This document shows, one piece after another, positions 1 through 50,282 of a stretch of 64,000 bases of DNA (the first letter of the stretch is position 1; every line of letters begins with the position of its first letter). The DNA is from Yuukianura sp. NJ FZ-2021 (Eukaryota), in assembly GCA_046563655.1 (NCBI GenBank), contig CM102289.1, positions 7,440,001 to 7,504,000 of the forward strand, in the 5' to 3' direction. The translations under genes were made by a program, and so were the position numbers. A model generated the notes under the pieces. The model did no database searches and was not told the origin of the DNA. It saw only the letters and a program-made list of their open reading frames with translations.

Positions 1-897
1 ATTGCCCTTTCCACAGTTTTCCAAATTTTCGCCGCTTTTGCCATCAATCACTTCATAGCGTTCAATTTTTTGACGCCAAAAGGCACAACAGTTAAATAGT
101 ACCGCAGTTTTCCAAATTTTGTTCTAAAAACACAGGATCCAGTAAAATCGTCAGTTGTAAACTTTAAAAAACCGAATTGTTTGTTTTAAACTTAAAAAAA
201 ACTTAAAGCTAGAAGCAAGCTAAACTCTATTTTTACTTCAAGCTGTCGACTTTTAAAAAATGGCGGGTTTGGAAAATCTTAATGATAAATTTTGAGATAA
301 TTTTCAAGAATTTAAAGTTTAGAGTTATTAGAAGTAATGGAATAATTTTAGAGTATAGCATAGCTGTAGTATTTTGTTAAAAATGTTAAGCGTCACGCTT
401 TCCGGCTTTACTAAAAAACGGTTCTTGGAAAGGACCAAAAAGGAGGCGTGTGTTGGCGGAAATGTTGGGATTAGAAAAAGAAAAACGCGAAGTTTTGAAG
501 TTTTAAAGCTTAAAAGAACGAGAATCTTTTTGAAATAAGTTTTTCGTTTTGTGGGAGCCTGTGCGTGTTGACTTTAAAAAGTTGAGAAAAAAAAAAGAAA
601 TATTTATGTCAAGATGGTGCTGAGTCAGGAAAGCACGAAAAGACTTAAATTGGAGACAATTGTCACCTTTGAGTAAAATTAATGAGGCAACATAACACTG
701 CCGAAGCAAAATACAAAATAAAGCCGCTTTTTCCAAAATGGTTTCTTCATAATCGTTTCTCCCATCCGATTAGTCCACACGAAGGAAAAGGAAACGGAAG
801 AATCAACGTCTTTTTGCAAAAGTGTTGAATTCCAAAATAATCGTCTCCAAATCTTTAGCTTTTGTAGCTCACATTTCTTTTATTTGGTTCAAAATAG

Positions 898-3800
898 TTG
901 ATTGGATGCCAAGAAGCTTGTGAGTTCCATCTTCATCAACCAGAAAATACTGAACAAGATGCCAGCAATAGTCAAATGTTGCCTCCCATCGCTCTACCGG
1001 TTGAACCTCTTCTTAAAATTTTCACAAATTTGAATCCCCCGCTTCTTAAATGGCCGAACTCCTCCGCGCGTCATCACGTGGTCTACTCTGTTATCAAATA
1101 CGACCATTCTTCTTGGATTCCCGTTGGAGAACAGACGATTTTAAACCAAATGTCAATTGATCTGGACTCATCTCACACTGGCCAAAGGTCAAAGGTCATT
1201 GACCTGAGGTCAAAGGTCACAGACCTCAGAGTGCTAGCTGTCACCGCCCAGGGACTGACTCATGTTTACTCAACTGCTGGAGGGAACTTTGAAACAAGAC
1301 GCGGGAGACAGCAAGAAGAAGATGATCCTTGGCACTTTCGGTTATCTTCTCTTGTACATCAAAAGTTTTTGGTTGTTACAGAAGTCAGGTGGGAATTTCC
1401 GCGGGAACTTCAAAATTTTCAAACTTATGGCGGAGAGCGTAGAAATGACACCCTGGAGCAACCGAGAGATCGAAGTACCAATGCAACTGAAGATCTTCGT
1501 AGCCATGACGACAAAGACGACGACATGCGGCGACATACACTGTTCCTATTGACTTGGGAAGTTTATGGGGGATTGGTTCGCGGTCACTTGGTGACTGAAA
1601 CCAATGTCGTCACAATCAGCCTTTGGCCAGAAACGAGCTACAGTTTACAGGTAAACCATACAGTTCTGTCATACACAGGGTTTGTGGACCACCGTTTAAA
1701 AATTTTTTGGCACTTTTGGAGAAATAGTTACGAAATTGGCGCATTGTGGTCACGGTTGACAAATTTGACGACAAGAAAAGTTGAAGTACGGAATAAAGAG
1801 GTAGAGACACACTTAGCTTCTTTTGTGAAAGCCGGAAACATAATCGAATTTTCTCCTTTCCGTTTTTTCATTTTTATTTCCGTACGTACAAAAAAAGAAA
1901 GTTGGATTGAGTTATAATCCAAATCCACCTAGCCATCTCCTTCTCTTTTTCTTTTCACCACCTTTCTTTTATATTTGGAAAAAGTATGCTTTAGAAAGCT
2001 TTAAAGTAACGTTTTGAAAAAAAAACTAACACTCTAGCCGGTTTTCTAAATCTGGCACGTGGAAGTAAAAAGTTAACCAACGTAACTGTTATGTATTTAA
2101 GCGGAAGTGGATTTTTCAAAAATTGTTTAAATTTTGGAAGATGAGGCGCAGTTTACTTTGAGGCGTGGTTTTAAGCTTGGGCGAAAGCAGGATATTGACT
2201 TACGACTTTCATATTTACATGAACAGGAACTGTTGATTCTGATTTTTTTGCTTTCAAATAGACGCTTTCGCTACATTTCATTTTAGTTGAGATTTAGATT
2301 TCCCTGTGGTAAATAATATCATCAGGAAAACCTTTCAGCGTCAGCGGGAGTTTTGAATTGAAAATTTCCTCATTTTCAACGGCAACAACTTTCCCTAGAC
2401 TTCCTCTCTTTTTAAATTGAATTTGATCCACAGTAGGGAAGAAAAGGTGTGTGTAGATTGAGCAAATAAATTCATTTTAAAATCCACTGCCTTACCACAA
2501 CTTTAATTTCTGTTTCCAATTTCCAATTGAATCTTCCCTCCAAATTCGTTTTCTAAAAGTAGCTTTTTAGTCTAGACTAGAAATCCAAGAAAATCCAAGT
2601 TGTTTGCTAACTATTTTCAAAACTTGGATTTGAAAGTTCCCGCACATTTAAAAATTCTACCCGGGGAATTTCAAATTAAATGTAGGTACTGCTTCAAAAT
2701 ACAATTTTTCACTAAAACGTGACAAACTTTTAATTCAAATTTCGCGTTTGCATGTTTTTGACAAGGTCAACTAAAATAGTTCACATGAAAGTAAACAGAT
2801 TTGAACTGCTCACTCAAAATAACTGGAGGGGAGAAAGCGAGATCCGGTTGAATAGAATACCAAAGTGTCAGGTTTTAATTTGAAATGAACTTTTGTAATT
2901 TTTGAAACTTTTGATAAAAACAGAAAAGTTGGAAAGCTTTTAATTTGGAACATAAAATTTGAATTAGAATTACTCCCGGTTTTTTGTTTCCATATCCAAT
3001 CAAAAGGAAGGGGAAAACGGAGAAAGGGTGAAAGAATTTCAATTCAAAATTCAATAAAAATGATTTTTGTTAAACCAAACCGCAAGGAAAAGCTTAAACT
3101 TGTTTTCTGAATCAAAAACTGAAAGTTCAACACAATCAAATATGCTAAAACGTCTTTTTAATATTCCACGATGAAGATGGAATTGCATGGAATTAAAGAA
3201 AAGTTGAGGGAAAGTCTGAAAAGCTCATTTTCTGAAGCATTGGTTTTTAGATTTGAAACATTTCACTTTTTTTCTGAATTCTTATTCTAAAACAAATCAA
3301 GTTTTTTGAAACTGTTTAACTTTAAATTTTGGATCAAGGGTAGGCGGAAATGGAGTGAACTCAAACACAATTTTCACTTTAGTGAAAGTTTAAAAGTTTC
3401 CCTCCTCTTTCTTGGTTGTCTTCCAAAGTCAGCCACTTCCTGACTCAAAATTATTCTAAAAGAGTGACGTTTCCGACGCCCGCGCTCTTTTCAGTTTCAA
3501 AATGTGCGGACTTTAATTACATTTTAGTCTATGTTAATAATGTCAGATATTTCAAACTTCCCGCTTTTCCTTGAAACCCAAAATAGTTACTTCCTTTGAA
3601 GTAGAACTTTCAGTCTGTTCTTTTTCCTTGCTCCAGGGCTTGCCCATTTCAAATTCCGAGACTGCTAAAGACTGAATTCTTTAGAAGGTCAATTATCTCT
3701 GCCTTTCACTTTCACGTTCACTTTCACTCGTATTTAGCCCTAAGTTTAGTAAGGACTTTTCAACAGGAGTCCTGACACTGTCAGTTAAAAAAAAGGTTGA

Positions 3801-13997: not shown

Positions 13998-14866
13998 GGA
14001 ATTTTTTAAATTTCCATAAAAAAGGAAAATGCACTGTAGTGAATTTGTTAGCCTAATCCTGACTTTTTCCAAAAATCCTTCTGTAGAAAGTTAGAAGGTG
14101 TGATGGTGTTTTTAAAAATCAATACTTTGGAATTTTTTAAATTTCCATAAAAAAGGAAAATGCACTGTAGTGTATTTGTTAGCCTAATCCTGACTTTTTC
14201 CAAAAATCCTTCTGTAGAAAGTTAGAAGGTGTGATGGTGTTTTTAAAAATCAATACTTTGGAATTTTTTAAATTTCCATAAAAAAGGAAAATGCACTGTA
14301 GTGTATTTGTTAGCCTAATCCTGACTTTTTCCAAAAATCCTTCTGTAGAAAGTTAAAAGGTGTGATGGTGTTTTCAAAAATCAATACTTTGGAATTTTTT
14401 AAATTTCCATAAAAAAGGAAAATGCACTGTAGTGAATTTGTTAGCATAATCCTGACTTTTTCCAAAAATCCTTCTGTAGAAAGTTAGAAGGTGTGATGGT
14501 GTTTTTAAAAATCAATACTTTGGAATTTTTTAAATTTCCATAAAAAAGGAAAATGCACTGTAGTGAATTTGTTAGCCTAATCCTGACTTTTTCCAAAAAC
14601 CCTTCTGTAGAAAGTTAGAAGGTGTGATGGTGTTTTTAAAAATCAATACTTTGCAATTTTTTAAATTTCCATAAAAAAGGAAAATGCACTGTAGTGAATT
14701 TGTTAGCCTAATCCTGACTTTTTCCAAAAACCCTTCTGTAGAAAGTTAGAAGGTGTGATGGTGTTTTTAAAAATCAATACTTTGGAATTTTTTAAATTTC
14801 CATAAAAAAGCAAAATGCACTGTAGTGAATTTGTTAGCCTAATCCTGACTTTTTCCAAAAATCCTT
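13998..14866. repeat. Tandem array, 131-bp unit, about 6.6 near-identical copies
   Basis: Unit starts (ggaattttttaaatttccataaaaaaggaaaatgcactg...) at 13998, 14129, 14260, 14391, 14522, 14653, 14784; few substitutions between copies. Confidence 0.97.
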
Positions 14867-43852: not shown

Positions 43853-45652
43853 ATGGAACTGGAGGACTGTGTAAACGTTTACAAACGAAGAAAACGGCGA
43901 CGCCGTGAACCCAAGTCCGGAACTTTACAAATTTTAAAACCGGAAACGCCAACTTCCTCCAGAAATCGACTTAAAATGATGAAAAAATGTGATCAGCAAG
44001 GATCCAACAATAGAAGATCATCCTTCCAACACTTTGTTTCTTCCTCCTTACTAACTAACATGATTTACACCTCTCTTCTAATTACTTTGGCCTTCCCCTT
44101 CTTCTTTGTTTGTGCAGAGGAACAGCCCCATCCTTCACCAGCAGGGGTAAAGGGCAATTAGCACCTTCTTAAGTGCCTCCCTACCTTGTTTGCAATTTCA
44201 CTTTCAGCAATTACGCCAAAAACGCAATTTTAACATTAAAAGATTAACAAAGTTTGACTTTTTGTTGTTTTTTACAGTTTCTAGATTTTGACAACTTACC
44301 TGTGACGCGATTCACTTGTGATGGGAAAGTCATTGGAGGTTACTACGCAGACGTGGAAACTGGATGCCAAATGTTCCATGTTTGTACTCTAGGACAGAAA
44401 GGTAAACATTATTTTCAAATTTGGGTCAAAAAGTGGTAAATTTTGAATAACTTTTTTGAATTTTTTGGTTACCGTAGATGAAATCCAAGATATCAAATTT
44501 CTCTGTGTCAATGGAACCGTGTTTGACCAAGAGACGCGCGTCTGTGAACGTGTTGACGAAGTAGATTGTTCCCAAGCTGAAAAATATTATGACCTCAATT
44601 TAGATTTGTACGTTCCGTATGTCACTACTCCAAAAACGTCTGAAGAGGTCACATCAACTGTTGCTACAACCACAACAACTACAACAACAACTACGACCAC
44701 CACTACGCCGGCGCCAACCGTGGCCCAATTTAGACCCCTGCACCCATACCTCACTTCGTCCCAGCGATTCCAGCACCATCTTCAGCACTCTACACCTAAA
44801 CCTACCTCTCCAGCCAATTCTAAAGGCTTTTCCTCCTTTTCATACTACCAGAGAAATCCAACAGCGAATTTCCAGCCTAAAACTTCACCAGAATCAGTTC
44901 CAATTTCTTCATCTGAATACAATTCGAACTTTCGACAATCATATGTTATTAATCACTCTCGAAATGATGACGAAGAAGAAGGAAGTCCGACTGGAAGAAA
45001 AGTGCCGTCCGGAGGTTCCAAACCGGCCATTTTCTACAATACTCATTCTGGTTTCAAAAGAAATTCCAGCAGTAGACCACTTCCGTATACAGTGACGACG
45101 ACCACTACGACGACGACGACAGAGCGGTCAATTCCGACATTTCCGCCGTCAACGGAAGATCCCGAGTACTATGACGAAGACTACTCGGAATCAGCGGCAG
45201 CCGAAGAGTCGTCGTCGTCAGCCAATGACCATTATCCACCAGTGGACTATCGTCAGAGTAAGAACATGAACGAGCAGACGAGTACTGAACATGAACAGTC
45301 GTCGATCACTAGTAACAACAGCACATCGGCCCAGAAGAGCAGTGTTGAGAAGGAGCCGGAATCGCTGTACTATGACGACGAATATGGAGATGAAATGCCG
45401 CTGGAGTATAGCGATGAGGATCATGCCATTATTAATCCAAATGAGCATCATTTTACGCATGTTGATGTTCCGAGGATTCCATATGCAAAACCGAACGTCC
45501 CTCGTGTTTTAGTAACCAATGGGAAACCGTTTCTACCACGTCTGAGGCGTCAGAGTTATCATCTTCATCAGCTGATTCCAAATATCTACAAAAGTAATCC
45601 AAATCCTCATCACTCATCTTCGAGTAGTGCCACACAAATATTTTTATATTGA
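43853..45652 (+). CDS. Chitin-binding type-2 (peritrophin-A/CBM14, CPAP1-like) secreted protein with a Thr/Ser-rich mucin-like tail
   Basis: Exons 43853 (or Met at 44060)-44146, 44278-44401, 44478-45652. Signal-like MIYTSLLITLAFPFFFVCA; six-Cys domain FTCDGKVIGGYYADVETGCQMFHVC...FLCVNGTVFDQETRVCERVDEVDC; poly-Thr tracts. Confidence 0.9.
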
Positions 45653-47072: not shown

Positions 47073-47847
47073 TATTCCTGCGCTACCAAATGCTAACAAC
47101 AAAGGATAGGAAGTCAATTCAATTCCAATCCAACAGTATATTCTATTCAGAAAGTTTATTAAGCAGTTAATGATTTACCTTCGTCACCTTACACGAACGA
47201 CTTCGTCGTACCTATTTGTATTCAGATAACCAAAGGACCTAATCGTTATGAAAATTGAAAAAAATTGAGAACATAACGTTGACTATTCAGTTATCCCGTA
47301 GCCGTAGTTTACTTTGAAGTAATTAGGTTAGCGGAGTAAGAAATTACAGAGCGGGCCATAAATTTTTCACCTGTTTTCATATGTTTCAGAAAATTTTCGC
47401 GGTCTTTTTCAAATCAGGCGTCTATGATACTACGCAAAATTTGTTTGGAACAATAACAAAGTAATACCATAAAGCACGACTTTAAAACGTTAAACATTAT
47501 TGAACAAAAAATTGAAATTGAAAAAACATTGAATTTGATTGATGCTTTCTCGGTGCCCTATAAAAAATTGCACGAGTTCCTCAGAATTCCGACAAAATTT
47601 TTTTTTAAAAAACAGGGTATTGGATAACGTAAATATAATTACATTATAATATTTAATTAATTTAATTTCATTTTTGTTAAATACGCATACCGAAGAAATT
47701 GTGCAACAAGTACAAAATTTAATCAACAACTTATTACAAAATCACTAAAAATTTCTCCGGATTCCTTCAGAAATGGAAAAAATTTTAACTTCTAACTTAA
47801 CTAAAATCCTACGCTAAACAAATGAACTGTGATTTTCATGAGCTTTT

Positions 47848-49117
47848 TCAATCAGATTCAGAAGGAATGCCGATTCGTGGCAGACAAACTGAATAGTTAT
47901 TGCAAGGATTGAAGCAGCAAACGGTTCTTTCGTCGTCACAGTCTGACTGTACAATGCATTTTGGCAAATTGTCGATACTGCAAATTCCAGCAACAATGTC
48001 CCCGGGACAGTCAGGCTCGTGGTCATCATAATGAAAATCTGCAAATTTTCAAAATTGATATTTTTTTTTTTTTGCAACTTTTGAAATTTTTAAATGTCAA
48101 CTCACGACTCGTGTGAAACCCGTCTCCGCGTGAAGGAATTACGATTCCTGGTGCAGTATTGACCAAGGTGGGTAAACAAGCAAATTGTTGATTGCTACAA
48201 GAGGTTATTCGTTAAGAAGGAATCACACATGGCAACGGGGTGTCTCGTTTCGCCTCAAATTAACTAACTTTAAGGTCTAATTAGACCTCACAGGTATATC
48301 GTAGAAATGTGTACAAGGGCTCTAAAAATTCGTCATTACCTGTAGAATACAGAGCAGTGATCGGAATTTGAATTTTTATTGCGAAATAATACTAAAAATT
48401 GAATACAAAGTTCAATTTTTTCTAAGCGTGGAATGATACAAAAATTCGGAAATTTGGTTACGGCGACTTAAGCGCCATGGTCTTCCGGATTTTTAGACAC
48501 CTCAAACGCATTTCTAGGTCTTATAATGAACATCTAATTAGCCAAAATAGATGAAATTCTATAGTAATTTGCAAATTAGCAAAAGTCGGCACTGAAATTA
48601 GCCGTCTCCATGGGGACACGTTGATTGTTGAGCCCCAGATTATTTGAAATGTTGTACTTTGAAAAACTTTGATTCGTCAACCATTCGAAAGAGTGCCGAC
48701 TTTTGCACGTTTGAGCAGTGATTTTGCTTTGTTACTAACGGCAATGGCTGACAGCAAATCGTAAACAAACGCTGCCTCTTACCCGTCCTTAAGTCCGGTT
48801 ACTACGTTTTTTGCGAAAATTTTCAAAAATGAAACCGACTCACGTTAGCCTTCTTTTCCATGGCAATTTTTTAAAATTGAATTTTTTTTTTCATAAAAGC
48901 TGAGATTTTATTATCAAAATCAAAATACAAAACTGGAGTAGTAAACAAAATTGGCGGAAAATTGGCGGAAAAAGTTGTTTGCACTCAATTTTTATAAAAC
49001 TCGGAGGTACGGAACAACCTCTTGTAGCAAGGGCAATTTGGTTGCTATAGCAACCTTGGTATTGACTACTTTGCTCAAGTGGCAAAAGATGACGCAAGCT
49101 AAAATTATTTTGTACAT
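47848..49117 (-). pseudogene. Secreted single-WAP (four-disulfide core) peptide gene, 99 aa when reconstructed, disrupted by a TIR element in exon 1
   Basis: Joining 49117-49059 + 48155-48106 + 48038-47848 gives MYKIILACVIFCHLSKVVNTAPGIVIPSRGDGFHTSHFHYDDHEPDCPGDIVAGICSIDNLPKCIVQSDCDDERTVCCFNPCNNYSVCLPRIGIPSESD*: a signal peptide plus the 8-Cys WAP pattern with CC; canonical intron 48105-48039. Confidence 0.85.
48164..49058. mobile_element. Non-autonomous TIR DNA transposon (hAT- or P-like), 895 bp, 8-bp TSD
   Basis: TSD GTATTGAC at 48156-48163 and 49059-49066. Imperfect ~41-bp TIRs: left CAAGGTGGGTAAACAAGCAAATTGTTGATTGCTACAAGAGG, right (reverse complement) CAAGGTTGCTATAGCAACCAAATTGCCCTTGCTACAAGAGG. 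Internal perfect 15-bp IR at 48579-48593/48692-48706. No transposase ORF. Confidence 0.88.
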
Positions 49118-49672
49118 TTTGAATTCAAAGTGTAAATAAGGATGCAAAATATTTTTGATGCTTCTCAAAGTTCAAGTGAAGATGATCATACAAAACAGCG
49201 TTTTACGCAAGTTACATCAAATTTTTTGAGCTTTATATAGAAAATGATTGCAACCATTGTCAGTTGTTGTTCCAGATTTCATGCTTTCCAGAACATTCTA
49301 TTTGTTTACTGTTATTTTCCAAAAGACCTATACAAAAACAAATTACAAAATGAAGTTACGAAATTCTCAGTCGCAGTACGACGCTAAAATTTCAAATGCA
49401 AAGCTTATAAACAATTGTGATACGCTTGAAAAAGTTGACATTTTGGTAAACAATGTCCGCTTTGGATATGAAACCCGGAAGACTTATTTTTCTGGATTTT
49501 TTGTCAACAAAATAGACTATTTTTAGCTTTGTTAATTGAAATTTTGCATTCTGGAAAATTATTTCCTATTAGTAAAATGTGCTCATTCTTATGTAAGAAT
49601 TTCGTTAGGAAATTAATACACAAATGGGAGACTCAATTAACTGTTTTATTTCTTTTTTTTAGTTGTTACAAC

Positions 49673-50282
49673 TTAATAGGCCCCGTAGCCTCCGTATGCC
49701 CCAGGGTAGCCACCACCATAACCACCATAGCCACCATAACCACCTCCATATCCGCCGTATCCGCCGTAACCACCATGACCCCCTGGGAAGCCCCCGTATC
49801 CTCCGTAACCGCCATATCCTCCTCCATAACCACCGTGGTGTGGGAAGCCACCTCCGTATCCGCCATAACCGCCATAACCTCCAGCTGGGCCGTAACCACC
49901 GTAACCTCCAGCTGGGCCGTAACCACCGTAACCTCCAGCTGGGCCGTAACCGCCATAGCCTCCAGCTGGGCCGTAACCGCCATAGCCTCCAGCTGGGCCG
50001 TAACCACCATATCCACCACCATAACCACCGTAAGCTCCTCCTACATGTGGGCTTGCTGCCGTGGAGTACGAATTGCTGTACGACGAAACTGATCCGCCAG
50101 CAAGTGCTGAAAAGAAAACGAATTTCACTTTCAAACTTTTCAAATTCAAAACATTTTTAATGAAACCCGTCTAGTTAAAATTTCGTTGATTTTCACATAA
50201 TATTTTAAAACAGAAATAACCTACGGGCAACAGGAGCAGCCGAAGCTGCAGCGATGAACCCGAGAAGAAGAACAGCCTTCAT
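49673..50282 (-). CDS. Secreted Gly/Tyr-rich protein (cuticular/structural-type)
   Basis: Exon 50282-50225 (signal MKAVLLLGFIAAASA) plus exon 50106-49673; GGYG repeats including about five 30-bp units encoding GGYGGYGPA-type repeats. Confidence 0.88.

Follow-up and report, generated by a model that had tools for sequence, protein, structure and literature searches.

Does the genome of Yuukianura sp. NJ FZ-2021 hold a small gene that a mobile element has broken, a gene that has taken the element in as an intron, or no gene at all at the point of insertion? The question is raised by a locus at 47848 to 49117 (minus strand) in the stretch of DNA analyzed here, 64,000 nucleotides of contig CM102289.1 (assembly GCA_046563655.1, positions 7,440,001 to 7,504,000), which we call the window and whose numbering is used throughout. 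At this locus, an 895-bp element with terminal inverted repeats (TIRs) lies inside a reading frame for an eight-cysteine peptide. An earlier note, made by a model from the letters and a list of open reading frames (ORFs), had described a WAP-domain peptide gene split by the element and had offered two readings, a recent knockout of a defence peptide or a transposon being converted into an intron. On the most likely reading, a small orphan gene encodes a secreted, acidic peptide with eight cysteines, and the assembly shows an allele of it that carries a hAT-type insertion, is polymorphic and is probably null. As a segregating knockout this is nothing out of the ordinary, and the element is not of a new kind.

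Empty and filled alleles in the read data

Five public DNA runs were found to contain the stretch, of which four belong to a single sample (organism A) and the fifth to a separate study (organism B); the runs listed included no RNA run. Four runs (X1 to X4; X4 is from organism B) were compared with positions 47500 to 49450. All of them consist of contigs, and the depths given below are sums over contigs, not copy numbers.

The empty form of the locus was observed in X2 record 10 (725 nt, depth 89.3). This contig matches 47670 to 48148 (13 other letters, 5 gaps), continues with 12 letters of its own, and then matches 49064 to 49163 (3 other letters). It omits 915 bases of the window and carries 12 instead, a net loss of 903 that keeps the frame. 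Because exactly 895 + 8 bases are gone, in frame, X2 record 10 represents the empty allele, which makes the insertion polymorphic within the sample. That the contig retains the 67-nt intron of the gene marks it as genomic DNA rather than spliced message; the part that it skips ends in TG..TT, not GT..AG. Four further contigs (X1 records 7 and 8, X3 records 21 and 22) stop matching exactly at 49064 and each continue with 24 letters that are not those of the element, as expected of the empty form. The filled allele was also present, in X1 record 3 (228 nt, depth 59.4), which spans 47971 into the element up to 48190. The earlier note had suggested a recent, perhaps polymorphic, knockout and had named reads as a place to look for the empty allele; the same-sample reads bear this out.

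At the junction of the empty allele, 6 of 12 letters (48149 to 48155 and 49059 to 49063) differ from the window, compared with about 3 in 100 elsewhere in X2 record 10. Read by hand in the frame of the gene, the junction encodes L-A-A-P on the empty haplotype and N-T-A-P on the restored filled one, with two replacements and two silent changes. These changes fall in what is likely the signal-peptide cleavage region. At position 2 of the 8-bp target, the filled haplotype has T and the empty one C.

Divergence of this kind would also be seen if the short contig came from a paralogous gene copy elsewhere, and the insertion at this locus might then be fixed. X1, moreover, has three different contigs over 47776 to 47812, with depths of 74.3, 21.4 and 71.9 that add up to the bin total of 167.6. 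X2, however, shows one form of the locus: record 10 is its sole contig over 47830 to 48027, and the bin depth there is that of the record itself. The flanks match over 479 and 100 nt on the two sides, a stretch that takes in the intron and the 3' flank; exon depth does not exceed flank depth, and tblastn revealed no second copy of the gene within the 64-kb window. A paralogous origin is hence regarded as highly improbable. Because three X1 contigs cover 47776 to 47812, the sample contains more than two haplotypes and was probably pooled from several animals.

Two other origins were rejected. The short form is not an excision footprint: it retains no double remnant of the target site duplication (TSD), shows no net change in length and has the flanks of a different haplotype. 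The insertion is not an assembly artefact, given the perfect TSD and the independent short contig across the left junction (X1 record 3).

In organism B, an 858-nt contig of X4 matches 47670 to 48159 and does not enter the element; its remaining letters were not placed. X4 carries exon 2 and the 3' flank at approximately 97% identity.

Structure of the interrupted gene

Translation of the window revealed a peptide gene of two exons on the minus strand, from an ATG at 49117 to a stop codon at 47850 to 47848 (Table 1). Annotation would overlook the gene, and what the assembly shows is the broken allele of a real-looking gene. When the element, one TSD copy and the 67-nt intron were removed by script, the restored frame comprised 99 amino acids with eight cysteines. 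The earlier note had derived the same precursor by deleting the element and one TSD copy; its frame was reproduced, but the 67-nt intron, which it did not mention, must be removed as well. Exon 2 belongs to a 66-codon open frame (47848 to 48048) and is joined to exon 1 via this intron. The element is inserted at about codon 20 (codon 19 to 21), in exon 1.

The leader is hydrophobic, with a Kyte-Doolittle mean of 2.0 to 3.5 over the initial residues (9-residue windows), and the peptide is presumably secreted. A motif scan revealed polyadenylation-type hexamers 124 to 190 nt past the stop codon. Translation with the element in place stopped after 41 amino acids at the TAA at 48994 to 48992, as the earlier note had stated. 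In X3 record 16, the one contig with every difference listed, 8 of 9 differences were located in the 302 nt past the stop codon and the remaining one (K to R) in the 197 nt of exon 2 and the intron edge. An R-G-D tripeptide is present in the linker (48106 to 48163, minus strand), between the leader and the cysteine domain; it may be there by chance.

Structure of the inserted element

The description of the insertion as a TIR element with a perfect 8-bp TSD was reproduced at every coordinate (Table 1). The two GTATTGAC copies are identical at 8 of 8 positions; the chance of an 8-mer match at one fixed place is approximately 2.5e-5 at the base composition of the window. The TIR arms of 49 nt are 71% complementary, CAAGGT begins both ends, and the ungapped identity is 33 of 47. 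A direct 8-mer repeat whose inner ends are perfectly inverted over 6 nt, at a distance of 200 to 3000 nt, occurs as 30 pairs within the 64-kb window. The other 29 pairs reached 12 to 22 inverted-repeat matches, compared with the 33 of 47 of the element pair, and many of them are A/T-rich 8-mers or copies from one tandem array.

No ORF above about 77 codons in the ORF list overlaps the element, and each of its frames in the sense of the gene contains 15 to 19 stops. A motif scan revealed two polyadenylation-like signals in the element, in the sense of the gene. No tRNA genes were detected over 47500 to 49500, and Rfam returned two rows, both below the gathering score. The element also contains two internal inverted repeats (48302-48332/48486-48516 and 48572-48593/48692-48713).

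The hAT superfamily is described as typified by 8-bp TSDs and a terminal YARNG motif (PMC3014272), and the hAT transposase Hermes as preferring 5'-nTnnnnAn-3' targets (PMC10368747). Here, CAAGG, which fits YARNG, occurs at both termini and the 8-bp GTATTGAC on both sides. GTATTGAC also fits nTnnnnAn, with T at position 2 and A at position 7, weak support as it comes from a single site. Because of the 8-bp TSD, CAAGG at both ends and the form of the target, we call the element hAT-like. Its features are consistent with a non-autonomous hAT element, and a hAT transposase may have been the agent of insertion.

The element family in the read data

No further copies of the element were found within the 64-kb window. 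The shared 19-nt inverted-repeat block, when used to scan metagenomes, returned five loci with match lengths of just 19 to 27 nt, which were read as chance given the size of the database. The runs gave a different picture. In X1, the summed word depth ranged from 1,175 to 71,131 over the 12 bins that the element fills completely, a range that also takes in the two boundary bins, and flank depth from 141 to 478, apart from one bin at 802 over the A-run of the intron. X2, X3 and X4 repeated this pattern, with 11 to 3,072 inside the element and 1.9 to 6.0 in the covered flank bins of X4. Across the four runs, the element reached roughly 10 to 350 times the depth of the flanks (5 to 8 times in one interior part).

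Contig ends located the edges of the family. Contigs whose left flanks are unrelated start matching at 48163/48164, and those with unrelated flanks on the right cease to match at 49060. Other family members depart from the window copy at 48215 and return at 48949, and short forms connect 48201 to 49021, with 13 other letters between, or positions near these. Read depth and these loose ends thus reveal many copies sharing termini, although the depths are sums and give no copy number. The element belongs to a multi-copy family that is present in both organisms, with common termini and a variable interior, and the family is abundant and apparently recently active. The earlier note had counted an absence of other copies against its own reading; this does not apply, since the family is multi-copy in the reads.

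Depth across the interior was uneven, at 50 to 350 times the flanks over 48226 to 48819 and just 5 to 8 times over 48820 to 48951. To judge from this unevenness, the interior may be pieced together from other repeats.

Splicing of the element

We then considered whether the element might be turning into an intron. Twelve combinations of GT/GC-AG sites 5' of the normal donor restore the frame, and one GT-AG pair among them has both sites inside the element. Its donor at 49010 is TCC/GTACCT and its acceptor at 48195 is ...CTCTTGTAG/C (the slash marks the splice point). The predicted product comprises 128 amino acids, 29 more than the restored frame. The earlier note had proposed that these sites restore the frame with extra residues, and its arithmetic was reproduced. 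The message would keep 87 nt of element and TSD, including a ninth cysteine.

If this splice were used, a functional allele would encode a 128-amino-acid precursor with the 29 extra residues between leader and linker. The pair is the sole GT-AG pair inside the element that restores the frame, the retained parts of the element are stop-free, and a short pyrimidine run precedes the acceptor TAG. The usual animal donor consensus, however, is MAG/GTRAGT; the candidate donor matches it at GT, +3 and +6 only, without G at -1 and +5, whereas the intron of the gene itself has a GTGAGT donor. The proposal is an outcome of frame arithmetic on DNA. Introners of Aureococcus that carry both splice sites and add codons have been described, but the case described adds 12 nt (PMC9860276), compared with 87 nt of foreign sequence and a ninth cysteine here. 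Because of the weak donor, the 87 nt retained and the two polyadenylation-like signals inside the element, we consider intronisation very unlikely. If it did occur, carriers would make a longer working peptide and hAT-type elements would act as introners in this lineage; the process would be open to direct observation, since filled and empty alleles both still segregate.

Identity of the peptide

The product of exon 2 has eight cysteines within 42 residues, spaced C-8-C-7-C-5-C-6-CC-3-C-5-C, and is strongly acidic, with an isoelectric point (pI) of 4.1 and a net charge of about -9. Eight cysteines in approximately 50 residues with a CC doublet at positions 5 and 6 are the pattern of the WAP domain, and the gaps here are 8, 7, 5, 6, 0, 3 and 5. 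The canonical WAP loops are C3-x5-C4-x5-C5C6-x3-C7-x3-C8. The peptide agrees with them at C3-C4 (5) and C6-C7 (3), but not at C4-C5 (6) or C7-C8 (5). As a reference for these loops (C-5-C-5-CC-3-C-3-C), we used domain II of crab Es-DWD1, with cysteines at positions 91, 102, 111, 117, 123, 124, 128 and 132 (PMC3742519). The 12-cysteine signature of crustins is described as four cysteines plus the eight of the WAP domain (PMC9680087); the mature part of the peptide has just eight and lacks this signature of types I, II and V.

Homology searches gave no relative. Pfam hmmscan of the exon-2 product returned no families at E<=10, PF00095 included, although the HMMER filters drop most matches above about 0.1. 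A word-index search with the peptide yielded no candidate, and phmmer against 1.84 billion representatives yielded none at E<=0.001, a database size at which little can be expected of a cysteine-rich query of 66 residues. Among PDB chains at E<=10, five rows were obtained (two EGF-like, two hantavirus glycoprotein, one phosphatase 2C; best E 1.1), none of them WAP. EGF domains have CxC and six cysteines; an EGF identity was rejected, as the peptide has CC and eight.

Structure prediction gave no confident fold. AlphaFold2 single-sequence models of 62 and 49 residues had low confidence, with a predicted local distance difference test (pLDDT) of 55.9 and 61.5. Foldseek with both models found no PDB match at E<=0.001, and VIA-align wide with a low-confidence model gave a best Z of 3.5, among SH3-like rows. 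The SH3-like, chemokine and Rossmann-fragment rows are read as noise from poor models.

The Atlas language-model feature search pointed to WAP. Its best cluster scored 0.84 with 177 of 256 features shared, and the ten best family matches were all WAP. The recognition value was 2819, compared with a value of 2300 reached by 9 of 100 shuffled sequences; by the calibration of that search, this is a lead, not a finding. With PF00095 excluded, no usable named cluster remained.

Taken together, the chances that the peptide is WAP-like are roughly even. A WAP-like four-disulfide domain is possible, not demonstrated. The cysteine count and the language-model lead favour the assignment made in the earlier note, and the Pfam, homology and fold searches did not bear it out. 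The gene should not be filed as a WAP member, and a WAP or defence label is as yet unfit for annotation. A defence role would follow from the WAP label. Antimicrobial peptides are described as usually short and cationic (PMC6398976), and because the exon-2 product is anionic, the defence role that the earlier note had proposed fits it poorly. Among the literature matches listed for WAP-domain or four-disulfide-core peptides of springtails, the word 'springtail' was not mentioned. The gene could possibly found a lineage-restricted, acidic, His/Asp-rich variant of four-disulfide-core peptides, in which case the polymorphism would be a ready-made natural knockout for that variant.

The lack of relatives also bears on whether the 99-residue frame is a gene. 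The transposon might have hit non-coding DNA, the ORF and its cysteines being coincidental: no homologue was found among the 1.84 billion representatives or by word index, no Pfam family matched, the fold models were of low confidence, and the gene is known from DNA alone. By our own estimate, however, a 66-residue cysteine-rich query against billions of sequences misses relatives below about half identity. Coincidence would have to account for the hydrophobic leader, for a short canonical intron with an exact join between the frames and for eight cysteines in 42 residues, together with a TATA-like motif and polyadenylation signals at sensible distances. The Atlas value exceeded that of the shuffled sequences, with WAP as all ten best families, and the empty allele stays in frame at the junction despite six substitutions. 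We consider the absence of a real gene unlikely.

Proposed course of events and its significance

We propose that an 895-bp non-autonomous hAT-type transposon of a many-copy family was pasted into exon 1, duplicating 8 bp of target. On the filled haplotype, translation from the normal ATG would enter the element and end after 41 amino acids. Because this stop precedes the cysteine domain and the element has polyadenylation-like signals in the sense of the gene, the filled allele is most likely null. The allele without the element segregates in the same sample, and the locus for this reason represents a presence/absence polymorphism and not a fixed pseudogene.

Several points weigh against this proposal. 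The six mismatches among 12 letters at the junction far exceed the rate in the rest of X2 record 10. In the same contig, 10 of 16 substitutions are unplaced, and intactness of the whole ORF on the empty haplotype cannot be claimed. X1 to X3 share a sample with the likely source of the assembly and are hence not independent. Since depths were summed over contigs, no copy number follows from them. The contrast between coding and flanking polymorphism (8 in 302 nt, 1 in 197 nt) comes from one contig. All runs are DNA contigs, from which expression of the gene and the fate of its interrupted transcript can at most be predicted; with no relative in the Pfam, word-index, phmmer or PDB searches, the evidence for the gene is internal. 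No autonomous hAT partner is in view, a whole-genome search lying outside this analysis.

Segregating transposon knockouts are common, so the mechanism itself adds little. The coexistence of intact and broken alleles provides a natural knockout for testing the role of an orphan secreted cysteine-rich peptide, and an abundant, apparently recently active family is of interest for the influence of mobile DNA on coding sequence in this genome.

Features of the locus and its surroundings

The features of the locus are listed in Table 1. Neighbouring frames in the window encode ordinary animal proteins (an arginase, an MFS transporter, a CRAL-TRIO protein with GOLD and a DEAD/DEAH helicase). The minus strand also carries, immediately 5' of the peptide gene, a Gly/Tyr-rich frame with GGYGGYGPAGGYGGYG repeats (49673 to 50170) and no Pfam match; because there is no ATG inside this frame, a short first exon is likely. 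A long open frame at 44447 to 45652 (plus strand) with Thr and Ser runs, including Thr runs of 13 and 10 residues, has a mucin-like look and no Pfam match. A tandem array at about 14009 to 14795 has a 131-nt period, with the 8-mer AATTTCCA at seven positions, each 131 nt apart.

Table 1. Coordinates of the peptide gene and the inserted element in the window, in the order of the gene
Feature	Position	Strand	Basis and remarks
TATA-like motif TATATAA, candidate core promoter	49233..49239	-	Motif only; 122 nt 5' of ATG
Exon 1, first coding part: ATG (49117-49115) and hydrophobic leader	49059..49117	-	Frame; last 8 nt are one TSD copy
TSD copy 2, GTATTGAC on + strand	49059..49066		Abuts element
hAT-like element, putative, non-autonomous, 895 bp	48164..49058		TSD, TIRs, no long ORF; copy status and edges from reads
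TIR beside the 5' part of the gene, outer end CAAGG	49012..49058		Inverted-repeat comparison
Hypothetical intron, 816 nt	48195..49010	-	Weak donor TCC/GTACCT (49010) to acceptor ...TTGTAG/ (48195); frame arithmetic
Premature TAA ending the read-through product after 41 amino acids	48992..48994	-	Frame with element present
TIR at the opposite end, outer end CAAGG	48164..48210		Inverted-repeat comparison
TSD copy 1, GTATTGAC	48156..48163		Abuts element
Exon 1, second coding part: linker with R-G-D and start of His/Asp-rich stretch	48106..48163	-	Frame
Ordinary intron, 67 nt, phase 1, GTGAGT...TTTGCAG	48039..48105	-	Splice motifs and frame
Exon 2, coding part: His/Asp-rich stretch, eight-cysteine domain, stop 47850-47848	47848..48038	-	Frame
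First polyadenylation-like hexamer	47718..47723	-	Motif only; 124 nt past stop

Comparison with known systems

The element resembles non-autonomous hAT elements (hAT-N, miniature inverted-repeat transposable element (MITE)-like; compare Ds to Ac in maize) in its 8-bp TSD, its YARNG termini (CAAGG), its imperfect TIRs and the absence of a transposase ORF. The resemblance extends to the family, which shares termini and differs inside, much shorter forms included; maize Ds is likewise described as a set of heterogeneous elements with common termini (PMC3260210). It differs in that its TIRs are long (about 47 nt) and just about 70% matched, its interior depth is very uneven, perhaps owing to a composite structure, and no transposase or autonomous partner is in view. 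Among the matches listed for the Collembola hAT and MITE literature, titles and abstracts contained nothing on this element.

The peptide shares with single-WAP peptides (type III crustins, PF00095) a precursor with a signal peptide and one C-terminal domain of eight cysteines in approximately 50 residues. The CC doublet at positions 5 and 6, C3-x5-C4 and CC-x3-C7 also agree, a P comes directly after the first cysteine, which corresponds to the KxGxCP motif (PMC3742519, PMC9680087), and WAP is the only family indicated by the language-model search. Unlike these peptides, it has no PF00095 match at E<=10. Its C4-C5 and C7-C8 loops have 6 and 5 residues, compared with 5 and 3 in domain II of crab Es-DWD1 (PMC3742519). 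It is acidic (pI 4.1), and a His/Asp-rich stretch replaces the Gly-, Cys- or Pro/Arg-rich N-terminal regions of WAP peptides.

The introners of Aureococcus (Gozashti et al. 2022, PMC9860276) are similar in that an element with TIRs and a TSD lies in coding sequence; at the present locus, as there, an inner GT-AG pair would restore the frame and add codons. In the case described for Aureococcus the addition is 12 nt, whereas it would be 87 nt here. The donor of the present element is weak, and its splicing is a prediction. Moreover, the empty allele of the present locus still segregates.

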